Virus genome (UHGV): UHGV-1352852
DNA from: a virus
Reading direction: 5' to 3' (one strand)
DNA length: 44,165 bases
Below, piece after piece: positions 12,862-32,392 of this stretch (positions are counted from its first letter, which is position 1; each line of letters begins with the position of its first letter). The notes beneath the pieces are model-generated. The model searched no databases. It saw only the letters and a list, made by a program, of their open reading frames with translations, and was not told the origin of the DNA. Position numbers and translations under genes: made by a program.

Positions 12862-13112
12862 GTTTCTCCTTTCTCGATAAGTAAAGCCCCGCCTTAAAGC
12901 GGGGCGCTAGTCCTTATCATTTAAACATAGAAACGGCGTAATCTCAGTAAACCAGTTACTTTTTACACAAGCAATAGAGTATGGCCCTTCCGAACGCGTC
13001 AGCGTAACTACACTCAGGACTTACGTCCCGCTCCGTTACCTGCCCGCGCCGCGGTCGCTTGTTCATACTTCACAAGCTCAGGTGGAGCTTATCATATTTT
13101 TAGTGAAAAGTC

Positions 13113-13128
13113 AACTATTCGAATAGTT
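13113..13128. promoter_or_regulatory. perfect 16-bp palindrome AACTATTCGAATAGTT
   Basis: Read directly; same AATAG/CTATT half-sites as the operator family, in inverted arrangement, in a 375-bp intergenic region. Confidence 0.3.
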
Positions 13129-13180
13129 TATTCTAACATTTACAATTCGGTGGAATAACTGGAATACGTAAATAAATAGT

Positions 13181-13209
13181 TTGCGCACACCAACATAACA
13201 GGGTACTAT
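13181..13209 (+). promoter_or_regulatory. sigma70-like promoter TTGCGC-N17-TACTAT with embedded palindrome
   Basis: Near-identical to the copies at 4377 and 16229; ~28 nt upstream of the 13237 start. Confidence 0.5.
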
Positions 13210-13236
13210 TCAGTTAATTTAAACAGGAGATGAAAA

Positions 13237-13758
13237 ATGGTTACTACAGTAATTACTTTCCCTGCGTATGTAGGGGCGAAAATATGCAGGGCTAAAAATG
13301 ATGTTCGCTACTATTTGAACGCTTTTTACATAGACCCTGAAGGATTGATAGTGTCTACGGACGGTCATAGATTGTTCTGCGACAATGTGAAGACCAACGT
13401 TGAGAAAGGGACTCTCATAGACATCAAAGGGAGAGAGCCTTCTAAATTTAACTACGCGGAGGTAAACCACGACAACGGCAGTGTATCTTTCTATGACGAT
13501 AATCGTGCGCTTATATGTACACTTCCGGTAGATGTTGTAGAAGGAAACTTTCCTGACTGGAGACGCGTGGCGCACATCACACCGGGTGTTGTCGATAGTA
13601 TAGGGTTCACCCTGCGTTATTTGGCAGACGCGTACAAGATTTCTAAGGCATACAAAAATGAAATTGCTCGTTTCGATTTCCAGGACCAAACCAGAGGATG
13701 TAAAATACTATTTTCAAACACGGCCTTTATGGTGTTAATGCCTGCGCGATTTAAATAA
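13237..13758 (+). CDS. beta sliding clamp (DnaN)-derived mini-protein
   Basis: Carries DnaN hallmark motifs in order: DVRYYLN, TDGHRL, GNFPDWRRV, IGFTLRYLADA and C-terminal FMVLMPARF (compare E. coli DnaN DVRYYLNG, TDGHRL, GRFPDYRRV, IGFNVSYVLDV, YVVMPMRL). AGGAGA RBS; terminator downstream. Confidence 0.7.
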   Translation: MVTTVITFPAYVGAKICRAKNDVRYYLNAFYIDPEGLIVSTDGHRLFCDNVKTNVEKGTLIDIKGREPSKFNYAEVNHDNGSVSFYDDNRALICTLPVDVVEGNFPDWRRVAHITPGVVDSIGFTLRYLADAYKISKAYKNEIARFDFQDQTRGCKILFSNTAFMVLMPARFK

Positions 13759-13761
13759 AAC

Positions 13762-13785
13762 TAGGGCCCCATACGGGGCCTTTTA
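13762..13785 (+). terminator. rho-independent terminator
   Basis: Hairpin GGGCCCCATACGGGGCC followed by TTTT, directly after the DnaN-like gene. Confidence 0.55.
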
Positions 13786-14247
13786 TCATTCTGGCTTAGT
13801 GACCTTCGCCGCTTTACTGAAGGCCTCTACGCCATCGGCATCGGTAACCTTGACGAAGTATTCACCGACTGCATTAACCGTCAGAGACAAAGCCTCTTCA
13901 GGTGCGTTTACCACTTCCTTACCGTCTTTGTACCAGGTCAGCACATATGGCGCTTTACCAGCCTTAACTTCGACAGTGAGAGTCGCGCTGCCGTCTGTCA
14001 GTTCGGTATCCTGCGGTTGCGCAGAGAAATACACGTCTCCAGCGTCTGCCAGATACGGAATCTCGTAAAGCATACCTGCGGTCGGTAGCGCAATACCAGT
14101 TTTATCTGCAAACGGCATATCGTCTACAGGTGTACCGAGTACACTTTCATCTTCAATAAATACCACGTTCTCACCGGAGCCAGACACACGGGCGTACTGG
14201 ACTACGCGACGCGACGGTACGTCAGTTACTTTGAAAAAGCCCATCAT
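13786..14247 (-). CDS. Ig-like domain structural protein
   Basis: Segment TLTVEVKAGKAPYVLTWYKDGKEV...GEYFVKVTDADG is Ig-like; downstream of the head-morphogenesis gene. Confidence 0.45.
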   Translation of the reverse strand: MMGFFKVTDVPSRRVVQYARVSGSGENVVFIEDESVLGTPVDDMPFADKTGIALPTAGMLYEIPYLADAGDVYFSAQPQDTELTDGSATLTVEVKAGKAPYVLTWYKDGKEVVNAPEEALSLTVNAVGEYFVKVTDADGVEAFSKAAKVTKPE

Positions 14248-16184
14248 TATTCCCCTTTCAGATAATCAGCAACACGTTTATCGAGTTCCGCCATCTGCTT
14301 AAGCGTGAGCGGACGCCCAAAACCATCTACAGATATTACGCGAAACTCCTCTGGTGATATACCGCTGTTACGGAAAATCTTACCGCGAACAGGGCCGAGC
14401 GCCTGGTCCTGAAACCATGCGGGCTGTTGTTTAAGGAACTCGTAGTAGGTTGTGTCCGCGCTTACCTGAGTACCGCCGTCCGCCCCGCGTGCCGCGCGTT
14501 TTGCGCCTTTATCAAGGAAGTCGAACTCCGAGCTAATCACCGGGGCCGTGGTACTTCTGCAATTCGGATGCGCTGGCGGCATCGGCCCTTTTCCAATTTC
14601 CCACGTCATTCCGTCTCTGGCCCTGCAATTCTTGACTATCGCACTACCTGCTGTATAATATCCTTGACTACTAGAGAGGGTATAAACATGGCACGTTCTA
14701 AACTCGACGCTTATGCGGATGATATTTGTTCTTTGTACCGAGATGGCACTCCCGCCAGCATCATAGCCAAGAATTACGGCGTCACTACCACCACGGTAAC
14801 AACATTTCTCAAGAAGCTCGGACTCATGCATGATCGACCCCGTGGTTGGGTTTCTAACGACACCATTTTGAATCAAAAAAGGGCTATAGAATTGTTCGAG
14901 TCCGGCGTCCCGCCTATTGAGTGCATAAGAAGGACCCAAGTAAGCAAAACAGTTTTCTATTCTATGGTCAAAACACTTGGCCTCGCTAAGCGCGGGCACA
15001 CTCACAGGACATTCACCCCGGAGGAGAAAATCGCCAGAGCTATCGTCCGACAGCAAAGCGGCGCTATGAATAAGACTGAAACCCTCGCTTTTGAATTGTT
15101 TAATTCCGCTGGCGTGGACGTAGTTCCGCAGTTTGCAATCGGCCCGTACAATGTCGATTTTGCCATTGAGTCCCACTCCATCGCCATAGAAATCTGTTGC
15201 CGCGGGACTCGTGCTTACCATTTTCCTGATGGGGAAATCAGCGAGCGTATTAAAAATATAATCCGCTCTGGCTGGCATGTTTATGTTCTTCACTGTTTCG
15301 AGCACAGTCACTTTGTCAACAGTGGTATACAAGACATGCTTAGTTGGATCGAGTTCATCAAGCGGAGTCCATCCGTATTGCGTGAGTACAGGGTGTTTCG
15401 GGGTGCCACTGAACTTCTCGCCGTTGGAAAGTTCGATGGTAAAGATTTTTCCTGAATAGAGTCCGCGCATTACCGCGTCCATCCCCGCGATGGGCGCTAA
15501 TTCTGTTTCAGCCGTGAAACACGTTGTACTGGTACGGCTGTCCAGCGTTGACACCCACTCGTATTTCTCGATGATGTCGTCGTTCTGGCGGTACGTCTCG
15601 TTACGGGCTTCGTTGGATACGTGAGCCAGCGCCGTACGTATTACGGTAGCGGCGTTACGCTCAGAGATGTCGGCCAGTCCGCCAGCGCCTACAACATTCT
15701 TAACAATCTGCCGTGTGGTTTGACCCTGAACAAAGCCCATCTTAACGCCAGTTACCAGGCGCGATACTTCTGTTTCACCCCAGCCACCCATCAGCTTAGT
15801 GAAATCTACTGGCTTGTCGCTTAACGACAGAGGCTGAAACTCGGCAGCGGCCCACACCTGTTCGGCAGTAGGCGTAACAAATTCAGCGTTGACGTTGGCC
15901 GTGAGTGTCTTTACATTCCACTCAGCCTCATACGCCGCCAGGTCCTTAAGGTCTTCTGTCAGCTTTGTTTGCCAGTCACCCGTAAGTCCTGTCAGTGCTT
16001 CTTCTAGGTCGCGTAACAATTTATTCAGTCGCGCAGTGCTTCGCCCGTCGTCACCGAATAACAGCACCTGCCGTTTGATTTCATCCCGCATCTCCTGAAT
16101 GAACGGTGTGAGGTCTTTCACTTCGCCGGATGCGGTGCGTTGCAGCCATATCTGGTGGCTGATTAGGGATGTAAGTAAGCTCAT
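14247..16184 (-). CDS. head morphogenesis protein (Mu F / SPP1 gp7-like), intein-containing
   Basis: Track ORF 14247..16241; ATG at 16184 (MSLLTSL) with GGAGGG RBS. C-terminal PPAHPNCRS motif typical of the Mu F family; central ~300-aa insertion with intein motifs. Confidence 0.7.
   Translation of the reverse strand: MSLLTSLISHQIWLQRTASGEVKDLTPFIQEMRDEIKRQVLLFGDDGRSTARLNKLLRDLEEALTGLTGDWQTKLTEDLKDLAAYEAEWNVKTLTANVNAEFVTPTAEQVWAAAEFQPLSLSDKPVDFTKLMGGWGETEVSRLVTGVKMGFVQGQTTRQIVKNVVGAGGLADISERNAATVIRTALAHVSNEARNETYRQNDDIIEKYEWVSTLDSRTSTTCFTAETELAPIAGMDAVMRGLYSGKIFTIELSNGEKFSGTPKHPVLTQYGWTPLDELDPTKHVLYTTVDKVTVLETVKNINMPARADYIFNTLADFPIRKMVSTSPAATDFYGDGVGLNGKIDIVRADCKLRNYVHASGIKQFKSEGFSLIHSAALLSDDSSGDFLLRGECPVSVPALSEAKCFDHRIENCFAYLGPSYALNRRDAGLEQFYSPFLIQNGVVRNPTTGSIMHESELLEKCCYRGGSDAVILGYDAGGSAISVQRTNIIRISVEFRTCHVYTLSSSQGYYTAGSAIVKNCRARDGMTWEIGKGPMPPAHPNCRSTTAPVISSEFDFLDKGAKRAARGADGGTQVSADTTYYEFLKQQPAWFQDQALGPVRGKIFRNSGISPEEFRVISVDGFGRPLTLKQMAELDKRVADYLKGE
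14632..14659 (+). promoter_or_regulatory. sigma70 promoter TTGACT-N16-TATAAT for the intein-embedded endonuclease gene
   Basis: Near-consensus -35 and -10 hexamers read directly; GAGAGGG RBS follows ~8 nt before the ATG at 14688. Confidence 0.55.
14688..15455 (+). CDS. homing endonuclease-like protein: two HTH motifs + Vsr-like (DUF559) PD-(D/E)XK nuclease domain
   Basis: Internal ATG of track ORF 14427..15455. HTH segments SIIAKNYGVTTTTVTTFLKKLGL and IECIRRTQVSKTVFYSMVKTLGL; C-terminal core YNVDFAIESHSIAIEI...GWHVYVL; encoded antisense within the intein. Confidence 0.6.
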   Translation: MARSKLDAYADDICSLYRDGTPASIIAKNYGVTTTTVTTFLKKLGLMHDRPRGWVSNDTILNQKRAIELFESGVPPIECIRRTQVSKTVFYSMVKTLGLAKRGHTHRTFTPEEKIARAIVRQQSGAMNKTETLAFELFNSAGVDVVPQFAIGPYNVDFAIESHSIAIEICCRGTRAYHFPDGEISERIKNIIRSGWHVYVLHCFEHSHFVNSGIQDMLSWIEFIKRSPSVLREYRVFRGATELLAVGKFDGKDFS

Positions 16185-16228
16185 ATGCCCTCCTGTAGTA
16201 TCGCCAGTGTAACGCATAAAAATAATAT

Positions 16229-16257
16229 TTGCAGACACCAATATAATAGGGTACTAT
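16229..16257 (+). promoter_or_regulatory. sigma70-like promoter TTGCAG-N17-TACTAT with embedded palindrome
   Basis: Third near-identical copy; leader shares TATCGAAACGAGA with the copy at 26613. Confidence 0.5.
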
Positions 16258-16291
16258 TCAGCTATCGAAACGAGAGATAAGGGATTTAAAG

Positions 16292-16504
16292 ATGAAAGAA
16301 TTAATTATCGCGGTATTGACGACACTGGCAGTTTCACTGGTAATTGCTGCTGGTGTACGTAGCTTAGATAAACACGGGTGTGAGAACTACGGAGATGTCA
16401 CAGGCAGAGAGGTAATGTATAGTTACACAACTTGTTATGTGAAAACTGATAGAGGTTTTATCCCTCGTGAAGAACTTAATTTCAGAGCAGCGACACATGA
16501 ATAA
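16292..16504 (+). CDS. small membrane-anchored protein, moron
   Basis: 70 aa; N-terminal TM segment LIIAVLTTLAVSLVIAAGV then a short Cys-containing domain; AAGGGA RBS; terminator downstream. Confidence 0.5.
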   Translation: MKELIIAVLTTLAVSLVIAAGVRSLDKHGCENYGDVTGREVMYSYTTCYVKTDRGFIPREELNFRAATHE

Positions 16505-16505
16505 A

Positions 16506-16532
16506 ACTAAGGCCCCGAAAGGGGCCTTTTTC
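16506..16532. terminator. bidirectional rho-independent terminator
   Basis: Hairpin AGGCCCCGAAAGGGGCCT flanked by an A-run and TTTTT; lies between the convergent 16292 gene and the portal gene. Confidence 0.55.
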
Positions 16533-26612: not shown

Positions 26613-26641
26613 ATAGTATCCTATTATGTTGGGGTGCGCAA
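26613..26641 (-). promoter_or_regulatory. sigma70-like promoter TTGCGC-N17-TACTAT (minus strand) with palindrome
   Basis: Minus-strand reading GCGCACCCCAACATAATAGGATACTATTCAC is near-identical to the plus-strand copies at 4377, 13181 and 16229. Confidence 0.5.
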
Positions 26642-27726: not shown

Positions 27727-29946
27727 ATGAATATTGTTTTTGCAACGCTGCGTAACACATTCGATAAAAACCCTGTAGCGCGTGAAATGCCGCTGGAGCA
27801 GTTCGTAGAGTATGTCTGTGATACATCAAAGCGTTTGTCCGTGGACCCGTCATGGACTAAAGAAGAGTACGACGCTGCCAAGATTAAACAGAAAGCTATT
27901 GCGCCTGTTGGTGGCCGCCGTAAAAACGCTATTCTGGAAGACAGTGTGGTTAAGTTCGACTTCGACCATCTAAACCGTACTCAGTACCGCGACCTTACCC
28001 GCAAATTCAAGATCGCACCGTTCTTCAATATTCTGCACACAACGGCATCGCATCAACATGCGTGTAAAAACGGTGATTACGCCTTCCGCGTTCTCGTACC
28101 GGCTCGCACGCCGTTTAACTCTAACGACGCGTGGATGGTTCAACGGGCTATTTGTGCAGAGTTAGAAATAGACGAAGCATTGCGCGACCACTGCACGGAA
28201 GATGGCAACCGCCTCATCTACCTGCCACATAGAGAGTCGAAGATAACGGTTACAGAAGGGCGTGTTATCCGTGCCGAGCGGTACATCAAGAAAGCCGAAG
28301 AGATGGGGTTGCGTAAACGCGAAGCTAAGACACTTGCCGCCGATGAGCATGGGCTTAACGCAGATATAGCGCATTTCTGCGAAGCCGAGCTTGGCCTTGA
28401 CGTCTTATCTTCTGGTCGCGGGTACGAAGTGCCATGCCCTAACGAACATCTGCATACAGGCAAGGGCTCCACCAGCATCATGCTCGACGGTAAAGAAGTT
28501 CGCTTTGTCTGCCAGCATACAAACAACGGCGCTTGCACCGAGCTTAACCGTAGGCAGCATTTGGCCCTGCGTATGTGTGGCCTACCCGACGAGCTTAACG
28601 TAGATAAGCAACCTATCAGCATTAACAGCATTCGTGCGGCTCTACCTGATTTACCGGAAGAAGAGATTGAAGAACTACACCGCACAGAGAACGAGGATCC
28701 AGTAACTTGCAGCCTCGACGACCTGGAAGACGAGGGCTCAGAAGAGGACGAGCTACCGGAACCGGTAAAGGCTGATTTCGTCGTTGAGGGGTACATGCCG
28801 TCAGATTGCATATGGGATATTGTCGGTGAATCTGGTACGTACAAATCATTCTATACGCTGGGGATGATGTACCTGAGCGCCGCCGGATACCGGTTTGCAG
28901 GGGCGGATACCCAGCGTTGCCACCATTTCTATATCGATGGCGAAGGCGGTGCAGCTACACGTACACGTATTGATGCGCTAGCGGCTAAATATGGCGAGGA
29001 AGGTAAAGATTATGTACATGTTATCGATATGGGCGAAGTCGGAAAACTGAAAAGCCTGATTAAGTTAATGCGTGAAACTGCTGGCGATGAGCCAATTGGG
29101 GTGGTCGCGTTTGATACCCTTAACCAGACGCTAGCCCTGACGATTGATAAGTTCGACGAGAACAGTTCGTCCACGGCAATCGGTATGGGTAAAGTTATCG
29201 CCATCCTGAAAGAAGTACGTGATGCGACTAAAGCCGCGGTGGGCGTTGTCCACCATACGCCGAAGGGTGGAAAGAAAGCCCGTGGCAGCGGGGCACTGTA
29301 TGCAGGTGTCGACGTCGAGCTGACAATCGAACGCGCTACCGACCGCCAGATAAACGTATACCACTCGAAATTTAAGCACGGGCCTCAACAGAAAACCGTC
29401 GGCATGGTGCTTGAGTCTGTACAGTTCCGTGAAGCCCCGCCGCCGAAAGAATACCGTGCTGTTGAGTTCCTGGGTAGCACAGAAGAATACGGCACAATCG
29501 TAAACCTGGACCTTCCTGAGCCGCATAAGGCACTTGTGCTGATGCCGTGGGGCTTCGAGCCGTTCAAAACCGACGAGGAGAAAGAGCGCGAAGAAGGGCT
29601 GGCAAAGGAAGGTAAAGAAAACGTAAAGAATGCCGTAAAACGTGGGAAGGATGAAGTAAGGAAGGAGTCAATACTTTCGGCACTGGAAGACCTGCAACAG
29701 TCAGATGACACAGGTCGCGGTTTTACTCAGCAGCAGATAGTTGCCCGTTCCGGTGACTTTTCTGTGACTAACACCCATCTTGATAAAATGCTGAAAGATG
29801 GTGAACTAATGCTAGGCTGTGATGCTAATGGCGAAGTAGTACCGAGAACGTATCGTATACCTGAAAGAATAGGGGATAGACTAAGACCGAAGACAATATA
29901 CGAACCGAATGAAATGCTGGTAGTGACAGAAGAGGATTTGGAATAG
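27727..29946 (+). CDS. DNA primase/helicase (primase-like N-terminal domain + RecA-like AAA_25-type ATPase)
   Basis: Central Cys/His cluster (CPNEHLHTGKG...CQHTNNGAC), Walker A-like GESGTYKS, Walker B VVAFDTL, downstream HHTPKGG; 739 aa. Confidence 0.65.
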   Translation: MNIVFATLRNTFDKNPVAREMPLEQFVEYVCDTSKRLSVDPSWTKEEYDAAKIKQKAIAPVGGRRKNAILEDSVVKFDFDHLNRTQYRDLTRKFKIAPFFNILHTTASHQHACKNGDYAFRVLVPARTPFNSNDAWMVQRAICAELEIDEALRDHCTEDGNRLIYLPHRESKITVTEGRVIRAERYIKKAEEMGLRKREAKTLAADEHGLNADIAHFCEAELGLDVLSSGRGYEVPCPNEHLHTGKGSTSIMLDGKEVRFVCQHTNNGACTELNRRQHLALRMCGLPDELNVDKQPISINSIRAALPDLPEEEIEELHRTENEDPVTCSLDDLEDEGSEEDELPEPVKADFVVEGYMPSDCIWDIVGESGTYKSFYTLGMMYLSAAGYRFAGADTQRCHHFYIDGEGGAATRTRIDALAAKYGEEGKDYVHVIDMGEVGKLKSLIKLMRETAGDEPIGVVAFDTLNQTLALTIDKFDENSSSTAIGMGKVIAILKEVRDATKAAVGVVHHTPKGGKKARGSGALYAGVDVELTIERATDRQINVYHSKFKHGPQQKTVGMVLESVQFREAPPPKEYRAVEFLGSTEEYGTIVNLDLPEPHKALVLMPWGFEPFKTDEEKEREEGLAKEGKENVKNAVKRGKDEVRKESILSALEDLQQSDDTGRGFTQQQIVARSGDFSVTNTHLDKMLKDGELMLGCDANGEVVPRTYRIPERIGDRLRPKTIYEPNEMLVVTEEDLE

Positions 29947-30304: not shown

Positions 30305-30805
30305 ATGTTAGAACAATTTCTGAAATTACTGGAACGTTTCGTAGTTGCGCATGAACTGATTGCTGCGAACAGTGTGAAACAGGTTGTTCAGGTTGCCGCG
30401 CCGCTGGAAGTAGAGACGGTAGTGTATGCCAAAGAAGCGGTAGCCGAGTGCACCGAAGAAGCAACAAAAGAAATCCCGGTCGAAGGTGAAAACATCGTCG
30501 ACACTAAACCGGCGGAAGACGAGAAGCCTAAACGCAAGCCGCGTAAAGCTAAAGCAGAGGAGCCTACGCCAGAGCCGGAAGAAGAGAAAGAAGAAGTCGA
30601 TTACCAGTCTCTTCGGGACCAGATTCAGGCTATCGACGATGCGATTAACGAAGGTCCAAGCGATGCCGCGTGCGACGATTCTGACGAACTGCTGGAAGAG
30701 TTCACCGGTAAGAAGATGAAGATTGCCGCGATTAAAGATGAAGACCTGGCAGAGTACCTGGAACGCCTGACGGCGATCAAGAACAAGTATTTCGAAGAAG
30801 AATAA
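30305..30805 (+). CDS. acidic protein of unknown function
   Basis: 166 aa, Glu/Asp/Pro/Lys-rich low-complexity centre; GAGAGGAGAGA RBS; hairpin terminator downstream at ~30810-30832. Confidence 0.45.
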   Translation: MLEQFLKLLERFVVAHELIAANSVKQVVQVAAPLEVETVVYAKEAVAECTEEATKEIPVEGENIVDTKPAEDEKPKRKPRKAKAEEPTPEPEEEKEEVDYQSLRDQIQAIDDAINEGPSDAACDDSDELLEEFTGKKMKIAAIKDEDLAEYLERLTAIKNKYFEEE

Positions 30806-30848: not shown

Positions 30849-31121
30849 ATGATTTACCAACTCTACCGCGCCGTTGACAGGCGGGATAACACAGATGCGC
30901 TATGGCTGTTGCGTGCGCCGTCCGGTGCGCACCAGATGGAAGAGATGGCGTACTTAGGCAAAGTGCCACGGCCTAAAGACATAGGCCGCCACGTGTCACA
31001 TATTAAGCGCACGACTTTCGCCAAACCTGACTTTTATGTCTTCGAGTCGATGTATGGGTGGGCTATGCACTGCGACCATAAGACACGACATTTAATTGAC
31101 CAGTGGGAGAGCAGGGTATGA
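30849..31121 (+). CDS. hypothetical protein
   Basis: 90-aa track ORF; its stop overlaps the next start (ATGA). Confidence 0.4.
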   Translation: MIYQLYRAVDRRDNTDALWLLRAPSGAHQMEEMAYLGKVPRPKDIGRHVSHIKRTTFAKPDFYVFESMYGWAMHCDHKTRHLIDQWESRV

Positions 31122-32392
31122 TTTTAAAGGAACGCGGCGGCAATAACGATGTGCACGCCTTACTGTCGCCGTCTGGTGCTAAAAAGTGGCTGGCGTGCAG
31201 TGCATCACTGGCCTGTGAAAAAGATATTCCTAACACGTCAGGTAAAGCCGCCGTATTAGGAACGGCTATGCACACCATAGCTGAGATGCACTTAAACCAG
31301 TACATCAAAGGCACTGCGTTGCCGTTAGAGCGCGAAGTAGGTGCTTACGTGCTGGATGAGGGTAAAGGCCAGATTAAGGCGCTAATCAGTCCTATGAAAG
31401 GCGCGGTACTGATTACGGCGGACATGATTGAGCAGGTGCGCAAGTACACCGACTACTGCAAAGCGATTATCGACGTAGCGACTTATGCCAAGCTCGAGAT
31501 GCGCGTAAATCTTACTCAGGTGCTACATCCTGGCTACAAAGTACCCGCTGATGGTGAAGAAGGCGAGGAGGATGATTTAGAGACGTTCGGAACCGCTGAC
31601 CTTGTTGCCGTGCTAGAAAAAGCAAATACAGACGAATTTATACTTAATATCACAGACCTGAAAACAGGACGGCATCGCGTCGAAGCGAAAGAAAACAAAC
31701 AGCTTATGCTTTACGCTCTTGGTGTTTATCGCCGACTCAAGAGACGTTATAACATCACCGTGGTTCGTCTGGTCATCTTCCAGCCATACGCGGGCGGTGC
31801 GTCGGAGTGGGACATCTCGGTTGAAGGTCTGGAACTGTTCGCTAAGTTCGCACAGAAACGCGCGCTGTTAGCGCTTGATGCTTATTTCCGCGGTAAGAAG
31901 AACCTGAAAGCGTCGGACTTCAGGCCGTCGGTCGATGGTTGTCAGTGGTGTAGGTTCTCGGAACAATGCGCCGCGCGTACAAAGACGGTTAATTCCGTAC
32001 TGGCGGAAGAACTGGAGGACGACTTTGCGCTGGAACTCACTCCTGAGCAACTCGTAGCTGAGTATGAGAAGTTGCCGATGCTGCGCCAGCACATCGACAA
32101 GGTTGAGAAAGCTATGGCTGCCGCGTTGCATTCCGGTAAGAAAGTTCCAGGGTACAAACTGGTTGAGGGTCGCCCGGGTAATCGTGCGTGGAAAGATACC
32201 GATGCAGTATTCGAGAAGTACGGTACTATGCTGCAAAAGGTAGTTCTCATGACGCCCACCGAAGCGGTTAAAGTTATACCGGAAGAAGAACTGAAAGACT
32301 TTATTACCCGTAAGCCAGGCGCACCATGTGTCGCAACGGCAGACGACAAACGTCCTGAGTGGGATCAGGTTAGTGAAGAAGATTTAGAATAA
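31118..32392 (+). CDS. PD-(D/E)XK RecB/Cas4-family exonuclease
   Basis: Nuclease motifs ADLV, ITDLK (D/E-x-K), QLMLY (QxxxY) plus C-terminal Cys cluster CQWCRFSEQC and an N-terminal Cys. Confidence 0.7.
   Translation: MILKERGGNNDVHALLSPSGAKKWLACSASLACEKDIPNTSGKAAVLGTAMHTIAEMHLNQYIKGTALPLEREVGAYVLDEGKGQIKALISPMKGAVLITADMIEQVRKYTDYCKAIIDVATYAKLEMRVNLTQVLHPGYKVPADGEEGEEDDLETFGTADLVAVLEKANTDEFILNITDLKTGRHRVEAKENKQLMLYALGVYRRLKRRYNITVVRLVIFQPYAGGASEWDISVEGLELFAKFAQKRALLALDAYFRGKKNLKASDFRPSVDGCQWCRFSEQCAARTKTVNSVLAEELEDDFALELTPEQLVAEYEKLPMLRQHIDKVEKAMAAALHSGKKVPGYKLVEGRPGNRAWKDTDAVFEKYGTMLQKVVLMTPTEAVKVIPEEELKDFITRKPGAPCVATADDKRPEWDQVSEEDLE

Follow-up and report, generated by a model that had tools for sequence, protein, structure and literature searches.

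A phage mini-clamp that retains the partner-binding pocket of the bacterial sliding clamp

What use might a phage have for only part of a sliding clamp? The question is raised by a 173-residue protein, here termed the mini-clamp, which is encoded by the virus genome UHGV-1352852, a stretch of 44,165 nucleotides that is referred to in its entirety as the window. The beta clamp of bacteria (DnaN) is the central docking hub of their replication and repair as well as an antibiotic target. An original prediction, made from the letters of the window alone, had read the open reading frame (ORF) at 13237..13758 (+) as a 173-aa derivative of DnaN, and the ORF is present as described. Over positions 12900-14300, the window is 90-95% identical to many Kagunavirus (Guernseyvirinae) siphophages of Escherichia coli, including vB_VIPECOMC04, fEg-Eco19, Ivi and fBC-Eco01. 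Judged from its sequence, the mini-clamp is best described as a pocket-only sliding-clamp fragment and as one more member of a large family that has already been catalogued.

The similarity of the mini-clamp to DnaN exceeds chance and the protein has a DNA-clamp fold. Among the PDB sequences, phmmer recognized E. coli beta with E = 9e-5, and the 152 residues that could be aligned are 33% identical. A hidden Markov model (HMM) of the family, a profile of 41 members, scored 104 bits against E. coli DnaN. The AlphaFold2 (AF2) model computed on the family alignment is a confident one (pLDDT 94.4, pTM 0.90), and a Foldseek comparison of this model with the PDB placed beta clamps in all of the top 50 positions (E ~7e-8). 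The proposed DnaN ancestry is therefore upheld by sequence, profile and structure comparison alike. Structure prediction against DnaN structures, which had been put forward as a check, returned a clamp fold, and the profile scores do not support chance matching of the motifs. Five segments had been regarded as near-exact DnaN signatures, a description that suits the first three: DVRYYLN and TDGHRL are identical to E. coli beta at 7/7 and 6/6 positions, respectively, and GNFPDWRRV agrees with GRFPDYRRV at seven of nine. The last two are looser (IGFTLRYLADA against IGFNVSYVLDV and FMVLMPARF against AYVVMPMRL) and are anchored by the elements conserved in the family, IGF..Y and MPxR. Taken as a single sequence, the mini-clamp lies below the cut-offs of both PF02767 (17.1 versus 27) and TIGR00663 (18.3 bits versus 137.65). 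Its residues 13-172 match positions 12-186 of the 190 in the PHROG 3007 profile (E = 1.9e-35), which is a full-length match.

The gene appears to be well maintained. Among the Kagunavirus copies, the ratio of nonsynonymous to synonymous substitution (dN/dS) ranges from 0.05 to 0.18, by which measure the mini-clamp gene is under purifying selection. An ORF on the opposite strand, 13219..13689 (-), was considered as a real gene and rejected, since the product of the plus strand shows both conservation among genera and a confident fold. The truncation relative to DnaN could also be taken to mean that a dnaN gene was once captured and is now decaying without a function. However, we regard this as highly improbable given the dN/dS values, the confident AF2 fold and the recurrence of the same architecture across no fewer than 150 clusters at 50% identity (141-255 aa). 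Furthermore, comparison with the DNA of 5,426 complete E. coli genomes yielded no match to the gene, which rules out both a recent capture of the host dnaN and a prophage location.

If the mini-clamp derives from DnaN, which parts of the parent have been kept? Its first 116 residues contain DVRYYLN, TDGHRL and FPDWRRV, and residues 16-116 align to beta 144-252 in the phmmer alignment. The remainder contains IGF..Y and the C-terminal MPxR, with residues 117-171 corresponding to beta 312-365 in both the phmmer and HMM alignments. Accordingly, the Foldseek alignments extend over ~257 columns for a query of 173 aa, which implies one large gap in the target. Domain I is missing, as had been predicted, as is beta ~253-311; the latter amounts to only the first half of domain III rather than most of it, as had been supposed. 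The second inner helix of domain II has been lost as well, since DSSP assigns no helix in the AF2 model between the strands at 59-63 and 73-77, although this helix is still present in longer members of the family. The secondary structure of the model thus comprises three motifs of the beta-alpha-beta-beta-beta type, one of which lacks its helix. A conventional DnaN has three domains and ~366 aa (TIGR00663; PF00712 + PF02767 + PF02768), and the mini-clamp with its 173 aa, covering beta 144-252 and 312-365, is no such monomer, just as the original prediction had maintained.

The missing regions bear directly upon ring formation. We take the head-to-tail dimer interface of beta to be formed by a strand of domain I and domain III residues ~272-305, including I272, L273 and I305. 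The title of a beta cross-link mutant found among the structure matches (PDB 3pwe, R103C/I305C) supports these interface positions. Both interface segments fall within the deleted regions, so co-assembly of the mini-clamp with host beta has no structural basis, and poisoning of host clamp assembly becomes the least supported of the functions that had been suggested for it. Presumably, the mini-clamp neither encircles DNA nor joins the rings of host beta. It is conceivable that the protein is nonetheless a true processivity clamp that oligomerizes in some other manner, for example with four chains forming a six-domain ring that serves the family A DNA polymerase (Pol A) of the phage. Shorter clamps are known to oligomerize differently, as in the trimers of the two-domain gp45 and PCNA and in E. 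coli beta*. Clamp domains contain a pair of similar beta-alpha-beta-beta-beta motifs, pairing of half-domains about a two-fold axis is conceivable, the region of the C-terminal helix in the family profile can be aligned with each of the two halves of domain III, and GenBank annotators do name the gene a sliding clamp. Against this stand the absence of both canonical interface segments, the loss of one of three inner helices in this subfamily, the lack of a clamp-binding motif (CBM) in Pol A and the dispensability of the gene in most close relatives that have the same Pol A. All considered, we find this explanation improbable.

What has been kept is the pocket for CBM peptides. In the structure of a UmuC peptide bound to beta, this pocket makes contacts through R152, G174, H175, L177, P242, R246, V247, V360, M362, P363 and R365 (PMC3716654). 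All 11 of these contacts are identical in the mini-clamp (R24, G43, H44, L46, P106, R110, V111, V166, M168, P169 and R171), whereas only 39/141 aligned positions outside of the pocket are identical (Fisher p = 2e-6). It is therefore evident that the partner-binding cleft has been retained, as had been anticipated. The same bias extends to the family as a whole: among 136 independent 50%-identity representatives of 170-255 aa, drawn from the exhaustive search described below, the pocket positions average 0.86 in conservation compared with 0.39 elsewhere (p = 1.4e-6). The other top-conserved positions are neighbouring residues of the cleft, namely Y153, Y154, L155, T172, D173, R176 and Y323. Above all else, then, it is the pocket that selection has preserved in the short-clamp family.

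This family is both large and widely distributed. Homologues were detected by tblastn in 223 phage records, with carriers among Kagunavirus, Cornellvirus, Dhillonvirus, Skatevirus, phages of Klebsiella, Proteus and Vibrio, as well as Burkholderia phage Bcep43 and Serratia phage Eta. A profile search of 5.8 billion proteins yielded 4,736 clusters at E <= 1e-5, of which the top 120 are all 169-252 aa in length, and an exhaustive search of 1.84 billion representatives yielded 12,974 profile matches at E <= 1e-10. The best 150 of these 12,974 matches, each representing a 50%-identity cluster, are all 141-255 aa, and with two exceptions (P0039 and P0246) they match the whole profile in one stretch. 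Likewise, BFVD contains many phage proteins of 163-250 aa with the same fold (template modelling (TM) scores up to 0.87), and a second AF2 model, of a 213-aa member (me9833b38687d, P0060), exhibits the same layout followed by a disordered tail. Such a C-terminal tail is typical of the long-form members (alignment A4), in which a conserved LPxW-like motif follows MPxR; the protein of the window has no tail. The LPxW-like motif could be a partner-docking peptide. A search of plasmids returned only full-length DnaN homologues of ~425 aa, carried beside dinG by conjugative plasmids, along with one phage-like Arsenophonus sequence, all of which were placed outside the mini-clamp family. On the conjugative MOBH plasmids of ~170 kb, the gene for the full-length DnaN homologue lies directly upstream of that for the DinG helicase, and a Dam methylase is encoded nearby, as exemplified by the Klebsiella plasmid p33Kpn22-2 (L015 3482-6962).

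Members of the family have received a variety of names. GenBank records refer to them as “DNA polymerase III sliding clamp”, “beta subunit” or “RusA-like Holliday junction resolvase”, Bcep43 gp15 is a “DNA Pol III b subunit fragment”, the copy of phage Ivi is a “beta clamp domain-containing protein” and the paper describing fBC-Eco01 treats its copy as an ordinary processivity clamp. The RusA name originates from PHROG 3007 and has spread into many phage records (H1, H4, H5, H34 and H38, among others). Taken literally, it would make the mini-clamp a Holliday junction resolvase, for which the strong match to PHROG 3007 and the many records that copied its label would speak. We assign this identity a vanishingly small probability and have rejected it, as a Pfam search returned no RusA match at E <= 10 and only the central domain of DnaN, the fold is that of a beta clamp and the label has the appearance of an annotation error. 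It had also been stated that no phage mini-clamp of this form was described. This does not hold for annotation, where Bcep43 gp15, the Ivi copy and PHROG 3007 all precede it, but literature searches found no functional or structural study of truncated phage clamps. The feature is real and its family is already catalogued, whereas a functional study was not found in those searches.

Together with its putative promoter, 5' untranslated region and terminator, the mini-clamp gene forms a compact single-gene cassette (Table 1), which is 96.5% identical over 622 bp to a segment of fBC-Eco01 (L001:3928-4549), while the flanking sequences are 86-93% identical. The two phages carry the cassette in different slots, between the head-morphogenesis and portal genes in fBC-Eco01 and between the spanin and Hoc-like genes in the window. 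With a GC content of 42.3%, it lies below both the window (50.4%) and the genes on either side (51-56%). The late genes form a long minus-strand run extending from ~19.8 kb down to ~1.2 kb and encode terminase, portal, a MuF-like head morphogenesis protein, a Hoc-like decoration protein, spanins, scaffold and capsid. The mini-clamp gene runs opposite to its minus-strand neighbours, which are the genes for spanin, Hoc-like, MuF, portal and terminase proteins, in agreement with the orientation reported for it. As for its own expression signals, the terminator was detected by a scan and the ribosome-binding site (RBS) was read directly. The promoter matches the consensus at only 8/12 positions and was missed by a consensus scan, and support for it comes from three conserved copies within the window. 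The terminator is usable on both strands and is shared with the convergent Hoc-like gene, which ends at 13786.

Table 1. Features of the mini-clamp cassette and of the related slots in the window
Feature	Coordinates	Strand	Remark or basis
Mini-clamp ORF	13237..13758	+	173 aa
Coding sequence part 1, residues 1-116	13237..13584	+	Beta domain II homologue (E. coli beta ~129-252)
Coding sequence part 2, residues 117-173 and stop	13585..13758	+	C-terminal half of domain III (beta 312-365)
Mobile single-gene cassette (promoter, 5' untranslated region, coding sequence, terminator)	13166..13784	+	619 bp
Putative promoter core: -35 TTGCGC (13181-13186), 17-nt spacer, -10 TACTAT (13204-13209)	13181..13209	+	Sequence
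RBS AGGAG, 7 nt before ATG	13225..13229	+	Sequence
GC-rich hairpin terminator	13763..13782	.	Terminator scan matches, both strands
Sister cargo slot, 70-aa predicted membrane protein at 16292..16504	16208..16530	+	Repeats, sequence
Third promoter copy, heading a leftward operon of small early-type genes	26613..26641	-	Divergent control region

The promoter copies are themselves informative. The promoter region recurs as a 57-nt repeat at 16208-16264, with the promoter copy at 16229..16257 (+), and a copy of the terminator (87% identical) lies at 16500-16530. Between them is a sister slot, located between the MuF-like and portal genes, precisely where fBC-Eco01 has its mini-clamp. The cargo of this slot belongs to PHROG 26710, which has no assigned function, and its GC content is 39.3%. 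A further copy, 26641..26613 (-), differs at 3 positions in 29 nt, for which the chance expectation is 0. When five copies are aligned, the sequence upstream is specific to the slot and the sequence downstream is specific to the cargo, while the core between them is invariant (TTGC..AC.CCAA.ATAA.AGG.TACTATTCA) and contains the recombination junction. This arrangement of slot- and cargo-specific flanks around a common core indicates that cargo is exchanged by recombination within the shared promoter and terminator, and such promoter-to-terminator slots show how E. coli siphophages exchange accessory genes. In addition, the entire 17-nt spacer of the promoter is nearly invariant, the fBC-Eco01 copy included, a sign that the element may not be a simple σ70 promoter but may include an overlapping operator or a recognition site specific to the phage. 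As one of the copies heads the leftward operon of small genes at ~26.6 kb, the mini-clamp is likely to be co-expressed early.

Carriage of the cassette is sporadic. A copy with at least 60% identity is found in about 27 of about 190 related records, and most Kagunavirus genomes lack the mini-clamp, just as most Dhillonvirus genomes lack the copy typified by phage EP23. In Bas70, the slot contains a different small gene. The view of the gene as an autonomous, counter-oriented unit is supported by its different slot in fBC-Eco01, its absence from most relatives and its low GC content. The designation “moron” agrees with the variable presence and atypical GC content, but can only be used loosely, as the phage is of a virulent type. 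The classical context of a benefit to the lysogen probably does not apply.

Among the relatives, the mini-clamp gene can be found in several settings. EP23 and Bcep43 have a lone counter-oriented copy within the head module, just as in the window, while the copies of Skatevirus VSt472 and Klebsiella phage ZCKp20p are the last or almost the last gene of a counter-oriented operon, which in VSt472 includes anti-restriction and ParB-like genes and in ZCKp20p a ParB-family gene. Metagenomic carriers encode it within early-type operons of small genes, near ArdC-like, ParB_N-methylase, DUF932 and small DnaA_C proteins. The latter consist of the C-terminal DNA-binding domain of DnaA and occur in the same early operon (L012 1948-2457, L020 6216-6707 and L013 7349-7594); they are another case, within mini-clamp operons, of a host replication protein reduced to a fragment. 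Neighbourhoods of this kind, together with the early-type promoter and the sporadic presence of an exchangeable cassette, as is typical of anti-defence cargo, raise the possibility that the pocket serves in counter-defence or competition, binding a CBM-like motif in an immune or nuclease protein of the host, or in a protein of a competing mobile element reliant on the host clamp, and thereby neutralizing it. However, there was no PADLOC match, none of the results suggests a specific target and the neighbourhood associations are loose. We therefore judge this explanation quite unlikely.

With which proteins might a working pocket interact? The window encodes a replication module of its own on the plus strand, consisting of an AAA_25 primase-helicase, a DUF2800 PD-(D/E)XK nuclease, an Enc34-type single-stranded DNA-binding protein (SSB), Pol A and an SNF2 helicase. 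A scan for CBMs found no canonical motif in these replication proteins, including Pol A. The sole loose match, QLMLY inside the DUF2800 nuclease, was judged to be due to chance. Separately, the primase-helicase (27727..29946, +) and the DUF2800 nuclease (31103..32392, +) have the acidic C-terminal tail EEDLE in common and the product of the ORF at 30305..30805 ends in FEEE; these tails may be a common element that docks onto the phage SSB or polymerase.

The explanation that we favour, albeit tentatively and with somewhat less than even confidence, is that the mini-clamp is an early, non-ring, CBM-binding accessory protein that acts as a decoy or competitor for the partners of the host clamp. 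According to this scheme, a contiguous pocket module of DnaN, composed of domain II and the adjoining half of domain III, would be produced early in infection from a copy of the early-operon promoter and would bind motifs of the QL[SD]LF type without forming a ring. Its targets would be host clamp partners, such as delta, the alpha and epsilon subunits of DNA polymerase III (Pol III), Hda, translesion synthesis polymerases and MutS/L, which would be titrated off host beta, thereby damping host replication or repair to the benefit of the phage. Host proteins are the favoured targets because no canonical CBM occurs in the phage replisome and most relatives manage without the gene. The early-operon setting of the gene in distant phages, beside small ArdC-like, ParB-like, DUF932 and DnaA_C proteins, likewise speaks for this scheme. 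Early phage proteins directed at the same machinery are not without precedent, as phage N4 Gp8 targets HolA (PMC6466130 Table 1) and phage Gp168 has been captured bound to the beta clamp (PDB 7evp). A broader proposition is that phages have repeatedly kept the docking pocket of the clamp on its own, as an early decoy that is unable to form rings and that titrates CBM proteins such as the clamp loader, polymerases, Hda and repair or immune nucleases off the host clamp, and have shuffled it as a cassette; this is somewhat more doubtful. If true, it would define a new class of host-takeover or anti-defence proteins that work through mimicry of an interaction hub and encompass thousands of clusters.

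Several observations weigh against a decoy. The pocket is also the most conserved part of genuine clamps, so its conservation is evidence of a working pocket and not of a decoy role. At subsite 2 of the pocket, the mini-clamp departs from E. coli beta (N320T, V344T, S346G and M364A) and its specificity may differ from that of host beta as a result. Moreover, the DNA-contacting loop of beta, HQDVR, has been kept as KNDVR. The Serratia phage Eta gene lies between ParB-like and helicase genes, near a primase, and many metagenomic carriers encode primase-helicases (Prim-Pol/AAA_25, PriCT_2-VapE or DUF5906) within 5 kb or less with no polymerase in view; both the Eta locus and these polymerase-less neighbourhoods fit an accessory role in replication. 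With regard to the decoy scheme, we infer both the target and the direction of the effect, be it inhibition or recruitment. The same pocket could belong to a recruiting adaptor, which would capture host CBM enzymes (the Pol III core, Pol I, ligase or the clamp loader) without forming a ring and bring them to the DNA or the primase-helicase of the phage for replication, recombination or repair. The pocket evidence is shared by both explanations, and the DNA-contact loop, the Eta locus and the metagenomic primase-helicases all speak for an adaptor. Conversely, Pol A, SSB, a nuclease and helicases are all encoded by the phage itself within the window, most Kagunavirus and Dhillonvirus genomes do without the gene and the single-gene cassette travels apart from the replication module. 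On balance, an adaptor appears rather unlikely.

The MuF-like gene (14247..16241, -) contains an 894-bp intein-type insertion (14632..15525), which is absent from Bas70, fBC-Eco01 and Ivi. Antisense to this insertion is a 342-codon ORF (14427..15455, +), whose product yields weak matches to HTH_7 and to the Vsr-like REase_MTES_1575. Its homologues, at 24-30% identity, are found in Gordonia, Aggregatibacter, Idiomarinaceae and Vibrio phages, in all cases under MuF-like genes, and the match in Gordonia phage Fosterous, too, is antisense to the MuF gene. The product of the ORF may be a homing endonuclease that is encoded antisense to its own intein.

The mini-clamp has some practical implications. 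In hundreds of GenBank phage records, the gene is labelled either an ordinary processivity clamp or a RusA resolvase, each of which is misleading. The protein would constitute a natural minimal pocket domain, of use in structural work, inhibitor screening and probing of the clamp interactome, and it may exemplify an unrecognized strategy of host takeover.

When viewed alongside known systems, the mini-clamp is clearly distinct from the bacterial beta clamp DnaN (PDB 1mmi, 4k3k and 7evp_B). Compared to the 366 aa of the latter, it has only 173 aa and lacks domain I, the N-terminal half of domain III, the second domain II helix and both dimer-interface elements. It also falls under the TIGR00663 and PF02767 cut-offs and is a phage-encoded accessory. 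Its closest counterparts are the members of its own family, PHROG 3007, which include fBC-Eco01 Gp04c (99.4% identity) as well as Bcep43 gp15, EP23 gp08 and Serratia Eta gp10 (28-44%). Like the mini-clamp, the short phage clamps all exhibit a layout of 1.5 domains, many of them are counter-oriented inside the head module and there is no substantive difference between them and the mini-clamp. Shortened clamps of another sort are E. coli beta*, a UV-induced product of an internal start in dnaN that comprises domains II and III, and the two-domain clamps T4 gp45 and PCNA. These share with the mini-clamp a shortened clamp fold and a partner pocket, but they retain whole domains and form six-domain rings as trimers, whereas the mini-clamp has 1.5 domains and no canonical interface. 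Finally, if the decoy model is right, N4 Gp8 (HolA/delta) and Gp168 (beta) would be small phage proteins that attack the same hub. Their sequences and folds are unrelated to those of the mini-clamp, and they bind the clamp or its loader, whereas the mini-clamp imitates the docking site of the clamp itself.

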